Shown piece by piece: positions 1 to 45,565 of a stretch of 45,565 nucleotides of DNA (positions are counted from its first letter, which is position 1; every line of letters begins with the position of its first letter). This stretch comes from a virus. The notes below the pieces were generated by a model that worked only from the letters and a program-made list of their open reading frames with translations, was not told the origin of the DNA and did no database searches. The position numbers and the translations under genes are program-made. The stretch lies in UHGV virus genome UHGV-1357383; one strand, given 5' to 3'.

Positions 1-58
1 GGCAGAGCAGGCAGAGCAGGCAGAGCAGGCAGAGCAGGCAGAGCAGGCAGAGCAGCAG
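1..58. repeat. 9-nt tandem repeat GCAGAGCAG (about 6.5 units) coding (Ala-Glu-Gln)n; the same repeat ends the window
   Basis: Direct reading gives period 9 from nt 2 to 55. The identical unit is present at 45531-45565. Confidence 0.9.
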
Positions 59-94
59 GAAGAATCTGCCAGCAAATCGAAGAAGGCGAAATAA
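1..94 (+). CDS. 3' part of the AEQ-repeat protein gene (continuation of the ORF that runs off the window end)
   Basis: The frame starting at nt 2 reads (AEQ)6 QEESASKSKKAK then stop TAA at 92-94. It continues the frame of the 45348 ORF if the molecule is circular. Confidence 0.6.
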   Translation, partial: AEQAEQAEQAEQAEQAEQQEESASKSKKAK

Positions 95-1014: not shown

Positions 1015-1383
1015 ATGGGCGCTAAAGTTCGCGGCATCCGCCAGGCCAAGGCCAACCTCGATCGCATCATCAAAGACGTCCAGGGGCGTAAAGTCGTGCG
1101 AGCAATTCAGTCTGCGATGCTTATCGGCAGCGGGCAGGCCGCTCTTTACACTCCGATCGATACGTCGACGCTCATCAACAGCCAGTTCCGCGAAATCATG
1201 GCTAACGGTACCAGGGTAACCGGGCGCGTCGGTTACTCGGCGTCTTATGCTACCTACGTGCATGACCCAAACATTCCTCAAAACTTTAGGCGAGCAACAG
1301 CAAGGAAAGAATTTCTTTCCAAAGGGTTTGAGGATACGAAAGGCGCCATAGATATGGTGATAAAAAAAGAATTGTCGCTTTGA
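1015..1383 (+). CDS. HK97 gp10-like tail component protein (122 aa)
   Basis: Motif GYSASYATYVHD resembles the HK97 gp10 family. Positioned before the major tail gene. Confidence 0.55.
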   Translation: MGAKVRGIRQAKANLDRIIKDVQGRKVVRAIQSAMLIGSGQAALYTPIDTSTLINSQFREIMANGTRVTGRVGYSASYATYVHDPNIPQNFRRATARKEFLSKGFEDTKGAIDMVIKKELSL

Positions 1384-1387
1384 TTTT

Positions 1388-1483
1388 GGTATAATTTATA
1401 AGCGCCTAGGGTAGCTCCCGAAAAGGCGGAACGTAGACCGCTCTGGCGCACCAACCATCTACGGAACCTGCTACGAGGTTTAT
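1388..1483 (+). promoter_or_regulatory. Extended -10 promoter (TGGTATAAT) plus conserved structured 85-nt leader of HNH cassette copy 1
   Basis: TGnTATAAT at 1388-1396. The downstream 85 nt are about 96% identical to 4041-4124. Confidence 0.5.
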
Positions 1484-2023
1484 ATGAAATGCAACGATAA
1501 CATTCCTATTGATTTCTGGAGAGAGTGCTTATCCTATGATGCTGAGAATGGTGTTCTTTATTGGAAAGCTCGCCCATTAGATCACTTCATGACAAGCCAA
1601 TCCTGTGCAACATGGAATAAGCGATTTGCTGGAAAACCAGCGGGCTCTCCCAATAATCAACAATACATTCATATAGGGATGCGAAATAAATTATATAAAG
1701 CTCACCGGATTATTTGGGCTTTATATTATGGTGAATATCCTCACTCCCTTATAGATCATGTCAATGGGAATAGGCAGGATAACAGAATCGAAAACCTCAG
1801 AGTCGTCAGCTCATCCGAAAACTGCCAAAACCAGAAGCTACGAATCACTAGTACCAGCGGGTGCGTTGGCGTGGCTAAATGTAATAGTGGTTTCAGGAGT
1901 TACATTCAGGTGAACGGAAGACGGGTTCACTTGGGGGTATACCAAAGCGTAGAAGAGGCTTTCGCTGTAAGAAAAGAAGCCGAATCAAGGTATGGATACC
2001 ATGAGAACCATGGACGGAAATAA
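1484..2023 (+). CDS. HNH endonuclease with C-terminal AP2-like DNA-binding domain (homing endonuclease-like, 179 aa)
   Basis: HNH_3 motif IDHVNGNRQDNRIENLR. AP2-like GVAKCNSGFRSYIQVNGRRVHLGVYQSVEEA. AT-rich relative to flanks. Confidence 0.8.
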   Translation: MKCNDNIPIDFWRECLSYDAENGVLYWKARPLDHFMTSQSCATWNKRFAGKPAGSPNNQQYIHIGMRNKLYKAHRIIWALYYGEYPHSLIDHVNGNRQDNRIENLRVVSSSENCQNQKLRITSTSGCVGVAKCNSGFRSYIQVNGRRVHLGVYQSVEEAFAVRKEAESRYGYHENHGRK

Positions 2024-2029
2024 CAAAAT

Positions 2030-2052
2030 AGGTCGCCACGGCGGCCTTTTTT
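2030..2052 (+). terminator. Intrinsic terminator hairpin aggtcgcc-ac-ggcggcct followed by TTTTTTAAT
   Basis: GC stem plus T6 run directly after the HNH gene. Confidence 0.5.
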
Positions 2053-2064
2053 AATGGGGTTTTT

Positions 2065-2448
2065 ATGACACCACCGATGTATATGCGCCTCAAAGACCTG
2101 TTTGTGGCTGAGGGGCTTACCGCAGCGTTTAAGGTCCAGTGGAGGCAATGGCGCGATACCGGGAAAGACACGGACCAGTTCATCGTGTTCAGGCCTTCCG
2201 GCGGCACCAATATCACCTTCGACCTTGGCGGCGACTGGTATGTGATGGTTGATGTGATCTCCTCGAAGGCGAATCCCGATGCTGCTGACGCCGCGGTAAA
2301 CGCCATTGTCGAGTACATCAGCGCGCAATCCGGCGCCGATGATTGCGTTGGCGCGCTGCAGCTTGTTGGCAATGTCCCGGCTCCGATCCCCACCGAAGAG
2401 GGCCGATTAGTAACCCGGCTACTCGTCTCCTGCACATACGGCGAATAA
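2065..2448 (+). CDS. Putative tail completion / terminator protein (127 aa)
   Basis: Position between head-tail joining genes and the major tail gene. No decisive motif. Confidence 0.4.
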   Translation: MTPPMYMRLKDLFVAEGLTAAFKVQWRQWRDTGKDTDQFIVFRPSGGTNITFDLGGDWYVMVDVISSKANPDAADAAVNAIVEYISAQSGADDCVGALQLVGNVPAPIPTEEGRLVTRLLVSCTYGE

Positions 2449-2466
2449 TCGTCAGAATCACCCATC

Positions 2467-2492
2467 AGGCTGCCATATGGCGGCCTTTTTTA
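2467..2492 (+). terminator. Intrinsic terminator hairpin aggctgcc-atat-ggcggcct plus TTTTTTAAT
   Basis: Paralog of the 2030 hairpin. Lies 15 nt upstream of the major tail gene start. Confidence 0.5.
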
Positions 2493-2506
2493 ATTGAGAG
2501 GCATAC

Positions 2507-3271
2507 ATGCAAGGCTGCGCTAATGACACCGGCAAGCTGATTGGTAAGGTGGCCGTGCTCCGCATGGCTTTTGGCTGTGCTGATACGGTTCCTGCGCTTT
2601 CCGAATGGAAGCGACTCGGCGCCATGACCACCAAGGGCTTCGACTACTCCATGAATACCGTCACCTCTGAGGCTGACGATACGAAAGGTATGGTTGAGAA
2701 CCTGGTCAACAATATGGACGTCACCATCTCCGGAGAAGGTGAATTCCGTAAAAAAGACAAGACGACTGAAGTTGGCGCTATTGCCATCTCGAAATATATT
2801 TTCGATGAAGTTCAGGCTGGTCGTCAGCCGACAGTCTGGGTCCGCTTCGACTTCACTGGTGAAGACGCTGGCACTTATATCATGGGCTACTTTAACACCA
2901 CCTCCTGGTCTGGTGATTTCGGCACCACGGATATTTCGACCTTCTCCGGGGAATGGAAAGTCTACGATGCCGATACTGTCGTCTTTGAAGTTGCCGGCCC
3001 GGCGCTGGCGTTCACCACCAACCTGCCGACGACCAAGAGCGTGACGGCCGGATCGGCTCTGACTATGTCTGTAGTGGTTGAGGGTGGCACTTCACCTTAC
3101 ACCTACGTCTGGAAGAAAGACGGCACGGTTGTCAGCGGGCAAACAACGGCGACCTTCAACAAGGCCAGCGCTGTTTCTGGTGATGCCGGGGTTTATACCT
3201 GTGAAGTCACCGATTCTTCCGCGACACCAGTCAAGATCACGTCTGCGTCCTGTGCGGTCACCATCAGTTAA
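2507..3271 (+). CDS. Major tail protein with C-terminal Ig-like (Big_2-like) domain (254 aa)
   Basis: N-terminus typical of phage major tail protein 2 family (GKLIGKVAVL...FGCADTVPALSEWKRLGAMTTKGFD). C-terminal TAGSALTMSVVVEGGTSPYTYVWKKDG...GVYTCEVTD matches an Ig-like fold pattern. Confidence 0.7.
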   Translation: MQGCANDTGKLIGKVAVLRMAFGCADTVPALSEWKRLGAMTTKGFDYSMNTVTSEADDTKGMVENLVNNMDVTISGEGEFRKKDKTTEVGAIAISKYIFDEVQAGRQPTVWVRFDFTGEDAGTYIMGYFNTTSWSGDFGTTDISTFSGEWKVYDADTVVFEVAGPALAFTTNLPTTKSVTAGSALTMSVVVEGGTSPYTYVWKKDGTVVSGQTTATFNKASAVSGDAGVYTCEVTDSSATPVKITSASCAVTIS

Positions 3272-3338
3272 CCCCCAGACTATTTCGTGAATAGTACAAA
3301 GGGCGTTCTGCGCCCTTGATACTGTTTATGGAGCGACT

Positions 3339-4055
3339 ATGACCCCGATTAAAGAATTAGGCGAATGCGTTATCGGTACCGGTGAACGGGAATTCTTTTT
3401 CCGACCGTCGTTTCGCAACATGGCGCGAATCGGTGATCCAGAGGAAATTGTCCAGGCGTTCTATGACCTGTGCAATGACGAGGCGACGCCATTCGCGCAG
3501 CGCGCAGCTGAGGCCTATATCCGCGATGAGTACAGCCGAATTCCTGATTGCGTCCTGCGGTTTATGCAAAGCGGGCTCCTGTCACGCAAAGCGATCATGG
3601 CCGCACATACGGTACTGACAGTTTGCTGTGACGATGATATCGGCGATCTGGTTGGATGGATGAAGCCGGGGAAATCACGTAAGCGTGGCTTTGTATGGCG
3701 CCCGGGCAGCATGCCGCCGGAAAGTATGGTTATCGTCGCGCAAAACCTGATGATGCACGGCATCATCGGCAAAGCGAAGGTGCGTAAGCTGCAGCGTTAC
3801 GAAACGAATGAGACAACCGCAGAATTCCGCGCAGCTGACTACATCATGGCGGCCCGCAACCATTTCGGCATAAGCCGGGAAGAGGCCGAGAACCTCACGA
3901 TGACAGAGTTCGCCATGATGATTAACGCCAAATACCCCAATCAGAACGGCTTCACCAGAGAGGAGTTTGACTCCGTAATGAGTGAAGATGATAAGCGCTG
4001 GAATGCAATGCTTGCAGCTGAAGAAGCTGGTAAAATGAACAAGCGCCTAGGGTAG
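3339..4055 (+). CDS. Tail assembly chaperone (G/GT position, 238 aa)
   Basis: Lies between the major tail and tape measure genes. Last codons (AGKMNKRLG*) are supplied by the HNH cassette promoter/leader repeat. Confidence 0.45.
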   Translation: MTPIKELGECVIGTGEREFFFRPSFRNMARIGDPEEIVQAFYDLCNDEATPFAQRAAEAYIRDEYSRIPDCVLRFMQSGLLSRKAIMAAHTVLTVCCDDDIGDLVGWMKPGKSRKRGFVWRPGSMPPESMVIVAQNLMMHGIIGKAKVRKLQRYETNETTAEFRAADYIMAARNHFGISREEAENLTMTEFAMMINAKYPNQNGFTREEFDSVMSEDDKRWNAMLAAEEAGKMNKRLG

Positions 4056-4124
4056 CTCCCAAAAAGGCGGAACGTAGACCGCTCTGGCGCACCAACCATC
4101 TACGGAGCCTGCTACGAGGTTTGT
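4027..4124 (+). promoter_or_regulatory. Extended -10 promoter (TGGTAAAAT) plus conserved leader of HNH cassette copy 2
   Basis: Near-identical to 1388-1483 (3 mismatches in the 85-nt leader). Overlaps the end of the chaperone ORF. Confidence 0.5.
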
Positions 4125-4712
4125 ATGAAAGAAATCGATATTGGTTATCTGAAGTGCATTCTAGACTACTGCCCTTCGACAGGAGTATTTACTTGGAAGA
4201 AAAGGGCGAGGGAAGAATTCTCGTCACAAAGAGCGCATAGTACTTTTAACGCTAAGTTCGCGGGTAAGCAGTGCGGCTCATTAACTAATAAATATCTGAC
4301 AATCAGGATAAACAATAGCCTCTACTATAGCCATAGATTGGCGTGGGCTATGCATTATGGCGAGTGGCCAGTCGGTGATGTGGACCATATCAATATGGAC
4401 AAAACTGATAATCGGATCTCGAATCTTCGGCTTGCCAGAAGGCGAGATAACATGAATAACCTTACTGCCACAAAGTCAAATAAGAGTGGGTTTATTGGGG
4501 TGTACTGGGCTAAAAGAGAGCGGAAGTGGGTCTCAGGAATCACCATCGACTATAAGTTTCACCATCTTGGTTACTTTGATGACCCTGTCTCAGCAGCAAA
4601 CGCCTATAACGCAGCATGCGAAAAGGCAAACGGCCGATTCTCGAAAGAAAAAATCAAGCATAATCTTAAAAAAATGGAGTTGTTTCAATGTATTGGAGAA
4701 AGATGTTTGTGA
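4125..4712 (+). CDS. HNH endonuclease with AP2-like domain, paralog 2 (195 aa)
   Basis: VDHINMDKTDNRISNLR HNH motif. AP2-like SGFIGVYWAKRERKWVSGITIDYKFHHLGYFDDPVSAANAY. Roughly 35-40% identical to copy 1. Confidence 0.8.
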   Translation: MKEIDIGYLKCILDYCPSTGVFTWKKRAREEFSSQRAHSTFNAKFAGKQCGSLTNKYLTIRINNSLYYSHRLAWAMHYGEWPVGDVDHINMDKTDNRISNLRLARRRDNMNNLTATKSNKSGFIGVYWAKRERKWVSGITIDYKFHHLGYFDDPVSAANAYNAACEKANGRFSKEKIKHNLKKMELFQCIGERCL

Positions 4713-4803
4713 TGAAACGGGAAATGGCATGTTTACAATAAAGTGATTTACATGCCGTTTTAAACGTTTGATATACAAGCTATAACTATTTAGGTGGCTG
4801 AAA

Positions 4804-5382
4804 TTATTTAAATTTTTTACTAGATTCTTCTATCCAGTTCTCATAAAAGGCAATCCCCGCCCTTGCAAGATCAACAGGTTTAGTGGATGTTATTGGGTTT
4901 CCTAGATGACTATTCGGCGGGTCATACGTACCACTTCTACTCGTTACGGCTATTGCTTCAATTGATTCAGGATGGAACTGTATCAAGGCAGGGGCACCTT
5001 CAAAATGCATATTACCAAAACCATCTATACTTAGGTTCTTGATATATAGAGATTTTGAGCCTGGAGCAGGGTCGATTGTGGTGCTAGCTGGAACTTTCTT
5101 AGATATGTCGCCTATGGTATGGTTGTCGCAGTCTCGCGCTTGTTTAATGTAGCGTAGTAAATCATCGCTACCTTTTATCGCATATTCTTTTGAGAATGCA
5201 TTTGTAAACTGTCCCTTTACTGGGTTGATTGCATTGAGAAGTTTCGTAAATGATTTTTCTATATGATTTAAGCAGTCTCGCCAAAGCTGCTCCATGTCAT
5301 CAAAGTTAGTAGACGACTCCATTTCTGAAATGCATTTCTTGGCTGCTTTTATTTCTTTTCTTGCTGGGTTGTAGTCAATCAT
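4804..5382 (-). CDS. Hypothetical protein (192 aa), minus-strand moron within the tail module
   Basis: Long ORF with ATG start opposite to the late operon. AT-rich island. Divergent intergenic region 5383-5597. Confidence 0.5.
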   Translation of the reverse strand: MIDYNPARKEIKAAKKCISEMESSTNFDDMEQLWRDCLNHIEKSFTKLLNAINPVKGQFTNAFSKEYAIKGSDDLLRYIKQARDCDNHTIGDISKKVPASTTIDPAPGSKSLYIKNLSIDGFGNMHFEGAPALIQFHPESIEAIAVTSRSGTYDPPNSHLGNPITSTKPVDLARAGIAFYENWIEESSKKFK

Positions 5383-5597
5383 CGTTGCTCCTTAATGTAG
5401 ATCTGTAGAGTCTGTTAATTGTTTGAATTTTAATGTAATAGGTGTTGGCTTTAGTGCGCAAGATAGCTAAGCCTTCACGTATCCATTAGATTAACTCAGC
5501 AACGAGAAGACGAAAATACTGATAAACGATCAGGTGGTTTTGTCGTTCCCTCGTATCCCTGCTAATCTGTCCAAAACTAACCAGTGGGGATAGGGAT

Positions 5598-5939
5598 ATG
5601 ACAGAAGACGAGTGGCTCGAAGGTCTTCGTGGGCTGCCTGATGATGTGATTTTAAAGATCCACTTTGACCTTCAAGAGAAAATTAAGAAGCACTATAAAC
5701 TGCGCGATTCTGGCAAGAACCTCGAGAAGGCAATCCATTACTGCCAACAGCAAATAGCCCTTGCCCCATTAGCTATGTCTGCCATGAAGAAAAATCCAGG
5801 CATGTACGATAATGGGCAATTCTTTGCCCCTGGACATCATGGTTACAGGCAATACGCGACGATCCTCAAGAAGCAGAAGGACACAGCCGGCCTGGATGCT
5901 CTCCTTAAAAAGAAAAAGGCGGAAGGATGGGCAGACTAA
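5598..5939 (+). CDS. Hypothetical cytoplasmic protein (113 aa)
   Basis: ATG preceded by GGGGATAGGGAT, the same context as the next gene. Lysine-rich C-terminus. Confidence 0.5.
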   Translation: MTEDEWLEGLRGLPDDVILKIHFDLQEKIKKHYKLRDSGKNLEKAIHYCQQQIALAPLAMSAMKKNPGMYDNGQFFAPGHHGYRQYATILKKQKDTAGLDALLKKKKAEGWAD

Positions 5940-5989
5940 AGATGTTTGGTTTGCTACGATTTTCTTACTTTTACTGATGGGGATAGGGA

Positions 5990-6680
5990 TATGAGGTGTT
6001 TTGTTGCGCTTATTTTTTTAATGGCATCTGGCGTGGTTGTGGCTAATGAAAAGCTTTTTTGTGAGTTTGCAGTTGGGGAGCTATCTTCATCTCCAGCTCT
6101 TCTCATTAAAGGCAATGCTAATGTGATGTTCGACGGAAAATCTTTTACAGCATATAGAACAGACGGCTCTTATATAGTAAGCCCACCACTGACTGAAAAG
6201 AAAGACGGTATGATTTTCGTTGATGATAAAACAAAGGTATTTGCCGCTAGCCAGGACAAATCTAACTTTGCAGTATCAGATAGGATAAAAAAAACCATAG
6301 AGCAATGGTCTAAATGCGAAGTAGATAAGGCGTCAGCTCAGCAAAAACAAGCAGAAGATGAAATGAGGGTAGTCGAAAGCCTTTCTGGAACCAAAGCCAA
6401 AGATTTCTTTATGAAAGAAAAACATGCCTTCACTACCAATTGCTTGGTATGGGAGGATGTTACAATGATCACTGGCCGCTATCCCGCCATGGTAATCGCA
6501 GGAAGTGTTATGATGGGTAAAAATCCTCGCTGGGATGGAAGAGAATACTCATTCTCCTTCAATAACGGAACGATGGTAGCAAGGTTTGTACCATCTGAGC
6601 CGAGACATAAATTCGTCATGCAAGCCGGTGATAAGTTTTATGGTTGCGGGCCATCAATGGTAGACCATAATTACGATTAA
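5990..6680 (+). CDS. Secreted/periplasmic hypothetical protein with N-terminal signal peptide (about 229 aa)
   Basis: ATG at 5990 preceded by GGGGATAGGGAT. N-terminus MRCFVALIFLMASGVVVANE looks like a Sec signal. The ORF track starts earlier at 5946 with a non-ATG start. Confidence 0.55.
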
Positions 6681-6708: not shown

Positions 6709-6734
6709 AACCTCGCTCCGGCGAGGTTTTTTAT
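6709..6734 (+). terminator. Intrinsic terminator aacctcgc-tccg-gcgaggtt plus TTTTTTATTGCC
   Basis: Perfect 8-bp GC-rich stem with a T-run. Ends the island before the tape measure gene. Confidence 0.6.
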
Positions 6735-6751
6735 TGCCTGGAGAAAAGCAA

Positions 6752-10017: not shown

Positions 10018-10042
10018 CAAACCCGCTCCGGCGGGTTTTTTA
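10018..10042 (+). terminator. Intrinsic terminator aaacccgc-tccg-gcgggtt plus TTTTTTAATGCC
   Basis: Paralog of the hairpins at 6709 and 42394. Confidence 0.6.
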
Positions 10043-10534
10043 ATGCCCGGAGGAAACGTGGCAACAGTTCAATACCCTCCGTTCCTGCCGCTTCCCCAGC
10101 GCGCCGATCAGAACATGACGCAGGATACAGCCTGGCAGACGACGCAGACGGCAGTCGGTCCATTGATAATCACGCCGATCACTACGGACCTTAAAGCGAC
10201 ATGGACGCTGCAGTGGATATTCACGCTGGCCCAGGCCGAGCGGTTTAAGTCGTGGCTTCGCTCGCCGACATACTGCGACCGCGGGCGCAACTGGTTCCAG
10301 ATGCCGATCGACCTGGGTGATACGCAGGGCGTTCAGCAGCAGACTCTGCATTTCGTCGACATGCCGGTGCAGACCAGCAAAAACGGCAACATTGTCACCT
10401 GGACCGCAACGGTTATAAGCAACGGTATCGAGGACATTACCGAGGACTACGACGACTGGATTGTCGAGGCGCAGCCGGGCTACGGCTATTGGCTGGATTA
10501 TCTGATCACCGAAGTGATGCCGAGGGCTGACTGA
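10043..10534 (+). CDS. Minor tail protein (M-position, 163 aa)
   Basis: First gene after the tape measure gene. An alternative GTG start at 10058 is preceded by GGAGGA. Confidence 0.5.
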   Translation: MPGGNVATVQYPPFLPLPQRADQNMTQDTAWQTTQTAVGPLIITPITTDLKATWTLQWIFTLAQAERFKSWLRSPTYCDRGRNWFQMPIDLGDTQGVQQQTLHFVDMPVQTSKNGNIVTWTATVISNGIEDITEDYDDWIVEAQPGYGYWLDYLITEVMPRAD

Positions 10535-34275: not shown

Positions 34276-34831
34276 ATACGTCATATTTGAGTCTACTTTG
34301 ATATGCTGCCTTAACTTTAAGTGGCGGCATGAAGATGATAGTCACATACCAGTTTGTAAAATTAGCCTCGGCATTCCGCCGGGGCTTTTTTATGCCTGCG
34401 ATCCGGTCAGGGCTCTTGGGTTGAGACGTGCTGCACGACACGTCGACACCCGCCGGTAAGAGCTCTGAACCAGACTGAAGTTACTCTGCAATAAGAAAAC
34501 TGCATGTCATCATTTGCTTACATCTTATTGACCAGAAAATTAACATCTTGTTAATCTATTCTTGTGGTGAATCCCCCTGTGCGGTGGGGCGACCAGTCAC
34601 TTACAGTGATCTGTAAATGCAGCGCGGGCCATGTCGGCTGGGACATGCTCACCGGGAGGCACCCGGCACCACGCAGTACTACTAAGACATTTGGTAGTGG
34701 GGTTGCTGTTTCGGCTCCTCCATCTATGTTTAAAAGGCAGTAACGGAAAAAGCGAGCGCTCTCCTGGTAAATCGGTAGCTCGGACTATTAGGTGCGCTTT
34801 CGTTTGTTACTACCTAGAATGTCTACTTTCT

Positions 34832-41885: not shown

Positions 41886-42395
41886 TTGATTATGAGCTCG
41901 ATCACGCCAACTGAGGTTGGCTCTTATGTTATTTCCCTGGTAGGTCCCATTATCATTGGGATGGCTGCGGCGGGTTTTACTGCCTACTTTGCATTACATC
42001 GATTCTACAGGGAAAAATGGTGGGAAAAAAAATACCAAGCTTACGATGACCTAATTGGCAGCTTATACGAACTTCAGATATTGCATAGAAATGCCATAAT
42101 TGAATACAGATTTAAGCAGTATCTGGATGAAGAGCCTCCGATTAAGGTAGATCTTGAAAGGTGGCAAGAACTTGAGGCATCTGTTAAAAAAATGCTCGCT
42201 TTCTCACCAATGAAGCTTACTTCATCAACCCAAGGTTATATAAAAGAATACCTAGACCAAGTTTCTTCGCGGGATAGCAAGCTGAGAAATCAGCATATTA
42301 AGAGAGATATCATCCTGCGTGAAGTTGAGTCAGTGATTATAAGTATCATACCAAAAATTGTTGAAGAGGCTCGTGTAGAGCTAAAAAACAAATAA
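41886..42395 (+). CDS. Single-pass membrane protein moron (169 aa), low GC
   Basis: N-terminal TM ISLVGPIIIGMAAAGFTAYFAL. About 38% GC versus about 55% in the flanks. Own terminator. Inserted between head morphogenesis and scaffold genes. Confidence 0.55.
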   Translation: MIMSSITPTEVGSYVISLVGPIIIGMAAAGFTAYFALHRFYREKWWEKKYQAYDDLIGSLYELQILHRNAIIEYRFKQYLDEEPPIKVDLERWQELEASVKKMLAFSPMKLTSSTQGYIKEYLDQVSSRDSKLRNQHIKRDIILREVESVIISIIPKIVEEARVELKNK

Positions 42396-42417
42396 CCCGC
42401 TACGGCGGGTTTTTTAA
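42394..42417 (+). terminator. Intrinsic terminator aacccgc-tacg-gcgggtt plus TTTTTTAATGCC
   Basis: Third copy of this hairpin family. Confidence 0.6.
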
Positions 42418-42446
42418 TGCCTGAAATACACCAATGAGGACGCAAC

Positions 42447-45347: not shown

Positions 45348-45565
45348 ATGAAAACGTTAAAGGTCGAGAAAACCGGCTGCTGGGGCATGATTGATGGCGT
45401 CTTCCAGCAACTTCCTGTTGGCCACGAATTCGTCGCGGCGGACATTCCCGCAGCTTTTGCTGGGCGCGTGTCGGTAGTGGGAGAAGTGGAAGATAAAAAG
45501 CTGGAAGTGGCTACGCCTGGTAATGATGCTGCAGAGCAGGCAGAGCAGGCAGAGCAGGCAGAGCA
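45348..45565 (+). CDS. 5' part of the AEQ-repeat protein gene; the ORF runs off the window end into the tandem repeat
   Basis: ATG with GGAGA RBS. MKTLKVEKTGCWGMIDGVFQQLPVGHEFVAADIPAAFAGRVSVVGEVEDKKLEVATPGNDAAEQAEQAEQAE... Confidence 0.6.
   Translation, partial: MKTLKVEKTGCWGMIDGVFQQLPVGHEFVAADIPAAFAGRVSVVGEVEDKKLEVATPGNDAAEQAEQAEQAE
45531..45565. repeat. 9-nt tandem repeat GCAGAGCAG (3.9 units), identical to the window start
   Basis: Direct reading. Confidence 0.9.

Follow-up and report, generated by a model that had tools for sequence, protein, structure and literature searches.

The virus genome UHGV-1357383 from the UHGV collection, a stretch of 45,565 nucleotides (nt) hereafter called the window, is best read as carrying two independent mobile cassettes of free-standing homing endonucleases, each consisting of a promoter, a structured leader and an open reading frame (ORF) of the HNH_3/AP2 type. 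By sequence and predicted fold, the two leaders (1402–1483 and 4043–4124, both on the plus strand) belong to the int-alpA RNA class (Rfam RF02996), within which they form a diverged subgroup associated with nuclease genes. We consider it fairly probable that they act as cis-acting translational switches of the mobile nuclease genes behind them. The loop of one leader hairpin can pair with either of two downstream sites, the second of which adjoins the ribosome-binding site, and loop and sites change together between relatives.

A repeat comparison of the window identified a single long repeat, a direct repeat of 113 nt with 90% identity (1387–1499 and 4028–4140). Within it, the 82-nt leaders, counted from the first base of helix P1 to the last base before the ATG, differ by exactly three mismatches (G1420/A4061, A1466/G4107 and A1482/G4123), one of which turns an A-U into a G-U pair within helix P4 of leader 2. 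Beyond the ATG, the likeness of the two copies ends within about 8 nt of coding sequence, and the HNH proteins are 33% identical (55% as DNA). A preliminary description of the window had reported near-identical leaders before two diverged HNH_3 ORFs in the tail module and had argued that this identity does not stem from a simple duplication including the coding sequence; both statements hold. The two inverted repeats that it had listed were located in leader 1, gcgcc/ggcgc at 1402–1406 and 1445–1449 and cgtaga/tctacg at 1432–1437 and 1458–1463.

Leader 1 (1402–1449) matches RF02996 with 34.3 bits (E-value 3e-4 to 2e-3) and leader 2 (4043–4090) with 30.0 bits (E-value 4e-3 on 8 kb), where the gathering score of the family is 35.8 bits. 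The predicted fold is a three-way junction with the strand order P1, UA, hairpin 1, GAAAA, hairpin 2, CU and P1′. In leader 1, P1 (1402–1406 with 1445–1449) encloses UA (1407–1408), hairpin 1 (1409–1419), GAAAA (1420–1424), hairpin 2 (1425–1442, loop 1430–1437) and CU (1443–1444). The corresponding parts of leader 2 are P1 (4043–4047 with 4086–4090), hairpin 1 (4050–4060), AAAAA (4061–4065) and hairpin 2 (4066–4083). All junction bases of copy 1 equal the RF02996 consensus, and copy 2 deviates by having AAAAA for GAAAA. In the alignment to the model, the differences between the stems and the consensus are compensatory. The minimum-energy fold reproduces the junction helices, covariation was observed in a P1 extension, hairpin 1 and hairpin 2 among 77 leaders, and the comparison of the family showed invariant junction bases while all stems vary. 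The structured 5′ untranslated region proposed in the preliminary description is thus borne out by an RNA family match, by folding and by covariation in relatives. A hammerhead or other self-cleaving ribozyme was considered and dropped, since the UA/GAAAA/CU junction, compared by eye, is unlike the CUGANGA...GAAA...UH core and no Rfam ribozyme matched.

The int-alpA motif was among the candidate structured RNAs reported by Weinberg et al. 2017 (PMC5737381). The main text of that paper holds no discussion of int-alpA, and its supplement may already mention some of the points made here. A literature search across 8 million papers returned no functional study of the motif, which a single paper named, as a list entry. 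Members of the class differ in their scores against the model. L136 and L138, close relatives of the window leaders, reach 34.5 and 34.8 bits, and all enteric phage copies before HNH genes lie slightly below the threshold. The copy at L009, which precedes a NUMOD4-HNH_3 gene, passes it with 44.4 bits. Canonical int-alpA loci score 51–80 bits, and the non-enteric copies that we retrieved with a DNA pattern built from the junction bases score 44–80 bits and are bona fide RF02996 members.

The RF02996 model ends at a conserved 3′ tail that corresponds to the first of two sites complementary to the hairpin-2 loop; helix P4, the second site at the Shine-Dalgarno (SD) sequence and the constant start codon lie outside the model. 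In leader 1, site 1 (UCUACG, 1458–1463) begins about 10 nt past P1 and is the complement of the loop segment CGUAGA (1432–1437), with which it would form a first pseudoknot (PK1). Site 2 (CUACG, 1471–1475) is exposed in the loop GCUACG of the P4 hairpin (GAACCU/AGGUUU, 1464–1481), which is present in the minimum-energy fold, and would pair with the same hairpin-2 loop in a second pseudoknot (PK2). Site 2 adjoins the SD sequence GAGG (1475–1478), located 5 nt ahead of the ATG at 1484. In leader 2, site 1 is found at 4099–4104, P4 at 4105–4122, site 2 at 4112–4116 and the SD at 4116–4119.

Both pairings were evaluated in an alignment of 25 distinct leaders of HNH genes (alignment A7, the HNH-type set). 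All helices were paired in 97–100% of cells, compared with about 40% when the partners were slid. PK1 was paired in 100% of cells and contains two positions with compensatory change, from CGUAG/CUACG to CACAG/CUGUG; PK2 pairing was retained in 97.6% of cells and shows the compensatory changes of PK1. In seven leaders, including that of Enterobacter phage ENT1, the loop now reads CACAG and both sites read CUGUG. Altogether 11 pairs showed double changes, and P1, hairpin 1 and hairpin 2 each contained compensatory changes. G-U pairs were confined to the plus, coding strand, which indicates that the RNA is transcribed from the gene’s own strand. A structure on the minus strand was rejected, because the G-U pairs of hairpin 2, P1 and P4 would become A-C mismatches there; minus-strand folds were no better than those of shuffled sequences.

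The duplicated site is also present in the wider family. At least two perfect Watson-Crick sites of at least 5 nt, within 50 nt, that match the leader’s own hairpin-2 loop were detected in 72 of 101 unique leaders. When loops were instead matched with the downstream regions of leaders having unrelated loops, the mean count was 1.4, with a maximum of 5 in 300 trials. The sites comprise more than 20 distinct sequences, for example CUACG, GAAGG, AAGGG, CAGGA, CGAUGG, GCGGA, AAGAGGG, CACGG and UAACG. Their median offsets past P1 are +10 and +23, which corresponds to a spacing of about 13 nt. Site 2 coincides with an SD-like tetranucleotide in 70 of the 72 leaders, the start codon following at a median distance of 7 nt, and site 1 is at least as long as site 2 in 65 of them. 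In every real instance of the element, a start codon was present on the same strand 30–45 nt past P1. CsrA-type regulation, with two GGA sites of which one lies in the loop of an SD hairpin, was also considered. It was rejected, as GGA is missing from the enteric sites CUACG and CUGUG and the covariation of the sites with the hairpin-2 loop indicates RNA-RNA pairing.

In the mechanism that we propose, the leader would act in cis on translation initiation of the nuclease. The loop of hairpin 2 would pair alternatively with site 1, serving as a decoy (PK1), or with site 2 in the P4 loop, forming a kissing interaction (PK2). PK2 would cover the ribosome-binding site, and PK1 would leave the SD displayed in the P4 loop. 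PK1 is probably the default or ground state, because site 1 is transcribed first, usually offers the longer match and forms the stronger duplex (−7.7 kcal/mol for loop and site 1 in the window, compared with −6.3 kcal/mol for loop and site 2). The balance between PK1 and PK2 would probably be tipped by the invariant junction, acting as sensor or organiser. Such a device could provide tight post-transcriptional control of a potentially toxic nuclease under a constitutive-type promoter in a temperate phage. A bolder version, which we think rather unlikely, is that the int-alpA fold represents a new sensor class of mobile genetic elements, with the junction binding a small molecule or a host or phage factor that reports the state of the cell. 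If so, the sensor might read, for example, infection, induction or DNA damage and turn costly or toxic genes on only at the right moment; the genes controlled would include phage homing nucleases from at least four nuclease families and the hypervariable ORF beside the integrase in genomic islands.

Extended −10 promoters of the sigma-70 type were read directly in the sequence ahead of both leaders, TGGTATAAT at 1387–1395 for cassette 1 and TGGTAAAAT at 4028–4036 for cassette 2, the latter within the chaperone ORF and part of the repeat. Both had been recognized before, the element of cassette 1 lying one base to the left of its earlier assignment. A hexamer that matches TATAAT in at least five of six positions and ends 6 nt before P1 is found in all 17 distinct upstream contexts of the HNH-type leaders, and the TG of an extended −10 element is also present in 12 of the 17. 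Given this fixed spacing, the RNA most likely begins with P1, with a predicted transcription start at or near G1402, its first base. A two-hexamer promoter scan found no −35 element for the cassette promoters and, because this element is absent, did not call them. The promoter forms part of the cassette module. Cassette 1 is closed by an intrinsic terminator (2030–2055, plus strand), detected by a terminator scan, in which a 7-bp stem with five G-C pairs (2030–2047) is followed by TTTTTT. A possible terminator past the second HNH gene (4726–4761; GGCAUGU, a 17-nt loop, ACAUGCC and GUUUU) sits between convergent genes. It was seen in the sequence only and was not called by the terminator scan because its loop is too long for it.

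The two ORFs behind the leaders, HNH-1 (1484–2023, 179 amino acids) and HNH-2 (4125–4712, 195 amino acids), both on the plus strand, encode predicted HNH_3 nucleases with a putative AP2-like C-terminal domain. Pfam HNH_3 (PF13392) was matched with 61.2 bits by HNH-1 (E-value 7e-17) and 66.5 bits by HNH-2 (2e-18), both above the threshold of 24.8 bits, and both proteins belong to phrog_99, ‘HNH endonuclease’ (2e-61 and 7e-61). Residues D91, H92, N100, N104, N113 and N116 of the beta-beta-alpha-metal core are invariant across eight HNH lineages. A profile built from these eight family members matches the catalytic core of I-HmuI (1u3e, E-value 2e-4) at residues 58–118 and plant AP2 domains at residues 123–170 (WRI1 7wq5, 2.5e-6; TEM1, 4e-3; ERF1, 0.7). 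For HNH-2, a single-sequence search of PDB found no direct relatives, and the profile search was needed. The AP2-like C-termini previously suggested are matched at the level of the family profile; with single sequences, Pfam AP2 remained below its cut-off of 33.3 bits for HNH-2 (17.1 bits) and gave no match for HNH-1. Nuclease activity and homing of both proteins are predicted.

The closest annotated relatives of the window are temperate Klebsiella siphophages, and the genes neighbouring the cassettes encode a tail terminator, a major tail protein with an Ig domain, a DUF6246 chaperone and the tape-measure protein. Cassette 1 is a 681-bp insertion (1384–2064, plus strand) between the stop codon of ORF 1015–1383 and the ATG of the tail terminator gene (2065–2448). 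In Klebsiella phages 2b LV-2017 and ST13-OXA48phi12.5, the equivalent of ORF 1015–1383 overlaps the tail terminator gene by ATGA with nothing in between. The cassette is missing from KY271395 and MK714353, in which the genes on either side overlap by ATGA, and the same site is occupied in L018, L037, L042, L043 and L048. Alignment with the cassette-free relatives, which the preliminary description had recommended, thus gave exact boundaries and an ATGA gene overlap as the empty site. As the insertion contains promoter, leader, HNH ORF and intrinsic terminator, cassette 1 is a self-contained transcription unit.

Upstream of cassette 1, the last ~160 nt of the tail gene (1225–1383, plus strand) form a diverged, co-conversion-like tract. 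It is 53–70% identical to the cassette-free relatives, compared with 90–100% for the remainder of the gene, and in the comparison with cassette bearers its identity to the empty allele is 64–67%. Altogether 40 of the 53 codons in the tract are altered, 28 by synonymous changes, which indicates derivation from a much more distant homologue. All five other contigs with cassette 1 share this allele (94–99% identity), and the distal part of the gene is 96–97% identical to all. The chaperone and tape-measure genes enclose the variable region in which cassette 2 is located; relatives have KilA-N, antirepressor or other genes there. The DUF6246 chaperone ORF (3339–4055) has a replaced C-terminus: its last ~100 nt (3940–4027, plus strand) are diverged, identity to cassette-free relatives dropping from 90–100% to 15–67%, and the ORF ends within hairpin 1 of leader 2 at the stop codon UAG (4053–4055). 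The chaperone allele of the window is shared, with 89–100% identity, by the contigs in which a cassette occupies this site. Behind an identical flank and leader, these contigs carry either the ORF of the window or a different HNH ORF (43% identical); where the alternative ORF is present, homology to the window ends at 4132, 8 nt into the gene. Free-standing homing endonuclease genes classically leave such a pattern, a clean presence/absence polymorphism together with a diverged flank linked to it. The position of the diverged tracts suggests that any homing target would lie at the 3′ end of the upstream gene and not in the leader, where the preliminary description had also considered it.

Between HNH-2 and the tape-measure gene lie three ORFs (4804–5382 on the minus strand, 5598–5939 and 5946–6680) that match only PHROGs of unknown function. 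Relatives have KilA-N, antirepressor or DUF4065 genes at this position (4804–6680), so it is a moron hot spot.

Further copies of the leader were sought beyond the window and found in dozens of independent phage and prophage contigs. The junction-base pattern matched 46 contigs of viruses and 82 of bacterial genomes, the majority from beta- and gammaproteobacteria, and some genomes carry more than one copy (for example the window, L012 and L043). In eight HNH lineages of enteric phages, the leaders are 86–96% identical (mean 92%), the coding sequences 52–65% (mean 57%) and the proteins 31–46% (mean 41%). Outside enteric phages, the sequence of the element is free to vary and its structure is kept. 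The leader type precedes four nuclease families, comprising besides phrog_99 other beta-beta-alpha-metal nucleases: phrog_374/953 HNH (L027, L133 and L134), NUMOD4-HNH_3 (L009) and an endonuclease VII-like protein (L043). These comparisons suggest that the leader has been kept by selection on RNA structure and has moved as a module. They strongly support one option of the preliminary description, selection on a cis element such as a riboregulator, as the stems and the cgtaga/tctacg pairing co-vary and the leader matches a curated RNA family. The other option, gene conversion within the genome, is not required, since the same leader precedes at least eight HNH lineages in many phages and several nuclease families.

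Among E. coli genomes (4 of 5,426) and GenBank phages (four records), the leader is rare. Obligate linkage of the HNH_3/AP2 family to it was rejected, as only about 7 of 80 more distant homologues have the leader. Canonical loci typically have, 10–20 nt before P1, the end of a same-strand gene for a P4-type tyrosine integrase, which explains the name int-alpA; the window copies lack this integrase/alpA setting and are located in the phage tail module before HNH genes. Autoregulation by the encoded nuclease was rejected because the same leader precedes unrelated proteins.

Canonical loci (L050–L131) carry downstream a hypervariable ORF of 200–290 amino acids next to the integrase. The 70 ORFs searched had no PADLOC match and almost no Pfam or PHROG match, DUF6387 being found in 4 of 70. 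Defence-system cargo was rejected on the grounds of the missing PADLOC matches and of DUF6387 as the only Pfam hit; the ORF represents a rapidly evolving, uncharacterised island gene that is preceded by the same leader. Other individual loci also deserve mention. In Aeromonas phage 4_4512 (MK813942; L134, 2436–3460), the leader and an HNH gene (phrog_953) are located between two coding sequences annotated as ‘putative methylase’ (1599 and 159 nt), which suggests that the cassette split a methylase gene. In a prophage of E. coli FDAARGOS_1277 (L132, 3001–3630), the leader is intact and the HNH ORF is broken by a stop codon, RefSeq annotating only the C-terminal 98 amino acids as ‘HNH endonuclease’; this is a decaying cassette. 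Environmental phage contigs L145, L175, L183, L185 and L196 contain distant HNH_3 homologues with a different common leader about 60–110 nt upstream of the HNH start (~1500 in each locus). It consists of a GC-rich hairpin, (C)CUAACC and an SD, has no Rfam match and may be a second, undescribed HNH leader motif.

Several observations weigh against the cis-acting switch. Both window leaders fall just under the RF02996 gathering score. Their folding energies are unexceptional relative to shuffled sequences (z = −0.87 and −0.85), and thermodynamic significance was therefore discarded as an argument, the statistic being uninformative for so short an RNA. Rfam types the family as ‘Gene; sRNA’, i.e. 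as a trans-acting small RNA (sRNA). The P4 hairpin is found in 70 of the 72 two-site leaders compared with a mean of 52.8 after shuffling, which is only a modest excess. The pseudoknot covariation within the HNH-type set may reflect a single evolutionary event, the strong multi-sequence evidence coming from the wider family, and an identical site 2 could be kept for a reason besides pairing with the loop. Finally, the 92% identity of the enteric leaders, loops and linkers included, exceeds what the structure needs; recent horizontal spread or constraints at the DNA level therefore also act.

The last point leads to the alternative to which we give most weight, although we still hold it to be improbable: that the leader works also or mainly as DNA, as a portable homology block through which nuclease ORFs are swapped or captured by recombination. 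Leaders that are far better conserved than the coding sequences behind them (86–96% compared with 52–65%), a break of homology exactly at the border of leader and coding sequence, two HNH ORFs behind the same flank and leader, and multiple copies per genome would all fit such a role. Against this, compensatory changes, G-U pairing limited to one strand and the association with SD and start codon are signatures at the RNA level, and outside enteric phages the sequence varies freely while the structure is kept. Somewhat less likely still is a true riboswitch, in which a ligand or ion bound to the UA/GAAAA/CU junction selects PK1 or PK2. This would be a sharper form of the cis-acting switch and does not exclude it. 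The invariant junction amid varying stems, the layout of an aptamer followed by an expression platform with an SD-occluding pseudoknot and the wide occurrence in beta- and gammaproteobacteria speak for it. But the downstream genes, phage HNH nucleases and hypervariable ORFs without Pfam or PADLOC match, are mutually unrelated and indicate no metabolite, no ligand suggests itself, and the aptamer would be small (~48 nt).

Two further explanations seem to us quite unlikely. The element could be a trans-acting sRNA whose place before ORFs is incidental, as the Rfam type and the promoter directly upstream in the phage cassettes might imply; yet no terminator is located between the junction and the ORF, P4 being A/U-rich in the enteric copies and devoid of a U-tract in the canonical ones, and the same-strand start codon always follows at 30–45 nt past P1 with the SD inside the co-varying site 2. 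The duplicated acceptor site at the ribosome-binding site argues likewise for a cis-regulatory switch over an sRNA. Alternatively, the leader could couple downstream to upstream translation, ribosomes that terminate at or in P1 or hairpin 1 unfolding the junction and changing the pseudoknot. The chaperone stop codon inside hairpin 1 of leader 2 and the canonical integrase ORFs that often end shortly before P1 on the same strand are compatible with this. However, the stop codons lie at widely varying distances from P1 (3–49 nt), such an ORF is present in only 51 of 117 loci, the upstream stop codon at cassette 1 lies 18 nt away, and the cassettes’ own promoters start at P1. By far the least probable explanation is that the two leaders are a recent intragenomic duplication or gene-conversion patch without function. 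Their 96% identity within one genome would fit, but dozens of independent phage and prophage contigs contain the element, together with at least eight HNH lineages and four nuclease families, it shows covariation, and the coding parts were not duplicated (33% protein identity). As the whole story, recent duplication or conversion in this genome is contradicted by the spread across lineages.

The cis-acting switch that we favour resembles several known systems in part. With int-alpA as modelled in RF02996 the window leaders share the three-way junction, the junction bases, the order of the hairpins and the pseudoknot between the hairpin-2 loop and the 3′ tail (model positions ~67–71). They differ in having a P1 of 5 instead of 8 bp and CGUAG/CUACG instead of CCUUx/xAAGG as loop and site, and in being part of a promoter-driven nuclease cassette in the tail module, whereas the canonical element directly follows a P4-type integrase gene. 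Free-standing phage HNH homing endonucleases (I-HmuI of SPO1, PDB 1u3e; the T4 mob genes; HNH-AP2 proteins) have the same HNH_3 core with D-H...N...N, possibly also the same AP2-like tail, and are likewise located between conserved genes with presence/absence polymorphism and linked diverged flanks. Unlike these, the cassettes described here, known from sequence, are not intron-encoded, lack NUMOD and IENR parts and carry a common structured leader. To our knowledge, no structured leader shared family-wide has been described for phage HNH homing endonucleases.

Control of mobile nucleases by RNA structure has a precedent in I-TevI and related homing endonucleases of T4, where a hairpin sequesters the ribosome-binding site and is bypassed by a late promoter inside the hairpin. 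In both cases, the SD of a mobile nuclease gene lies in local RNA structure, which presumably limits a toxic enzyme; T4 uses a simple hairpin, whereas the leaders in the window would be multi-helix RNAs with two alternative pseudoknots that extend from the promoter +1 and are common to many unrelated genes. The preQ1-II, SAM-II and SAM-V riboswitches occlude the SD by a pseudoknot. They, too, combine a compact, aptamer-like fold with a loop whose pairing partner is a 3′ segment located at the ribosome-binding site, but the duplication of the acceptor site into a decoy and an SD site is unusual, and the genes here belong to mobile elements and not to metabolism. HEARO, or IscB omega-RNA, is a large guide-bearing structured RNA beside the IscB gene, whose product contains RuvC and HNH domains. 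It shares with our cassettes a structured RNA adjoining an HNH nuclease gene in mobile DNA. The proteins in our case, of the HNH_3/AP2 type and 180–195 amino acids long, have no RuvC or bridge-helix parts. The RNA, a short 5′ leader, lacks a guide segment and also precedes non-nuclease genes, and the Rfam scans gave no HEARO match.

Neither component is new by itself, homing cassettes of the HNH type being commonplace and the RNA fold having an entry in Rfam. Three features do appear to be new: a nuclease-linked subgroup that has its own promoter, the duplication of the acceptor site, with one copy at the ribosome-binding site, and a leader that serves as a mosaic boundary. The preliminary description had also not included the match to an Rfam family, the second complementary site next to the SD and the wide occurrence outside HNH genes. 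The int-alpA motif is one of many orphan bacterial RNA motifs and is catalogued as a probable sRNA; our data suggest that it forms the 5′ portion of a longer leader acting in cis, in which the loop can pair with either of two sites that co-vary with it, the second lying at the ribosome-binding site. In phages of Klebsiella, Enterobacter, E. coli and Aeromonas, the diverged subgroup and its promoter would have been recruited as the usual front end of homing-nuclease cassettes, and the leader would mark the recombination boundary at which nuclease ORFs are exchanged. The orphan RNA thereby obtains a concrete, mutationally testable mechanism, which may also explain how temperate phages tolerate constitutively transcribed nucleases. 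In addition, promoter and leader offer a sequence handle for mobile nuclease cassettes whose products are labelled ‘hypothetical’ in protein searches.

A few other elements of the window were recorded. A 28-nt terminator-like hairpin with a T-run occurs three times with 75–100% identity (6710–6737, 10020–10047 and 42394–42421); two of the copies flank the tape-measure gene and one is located elsewhere. The plus strand at 34535–34729 matches the Rfam family STnc100, a gammaproteobacterial sRNA frequent in prophages, with 89.7 bits (gathering score 47). Finally, the 9-nt tandem repeat GCAGAGCAG is present at both ends of the window (2–72 and 45522–45565). The window has the appearance of a complete, circularly permuted phage genome (about 45.5 kb) in which the repeat-containing gene runs across the junction.

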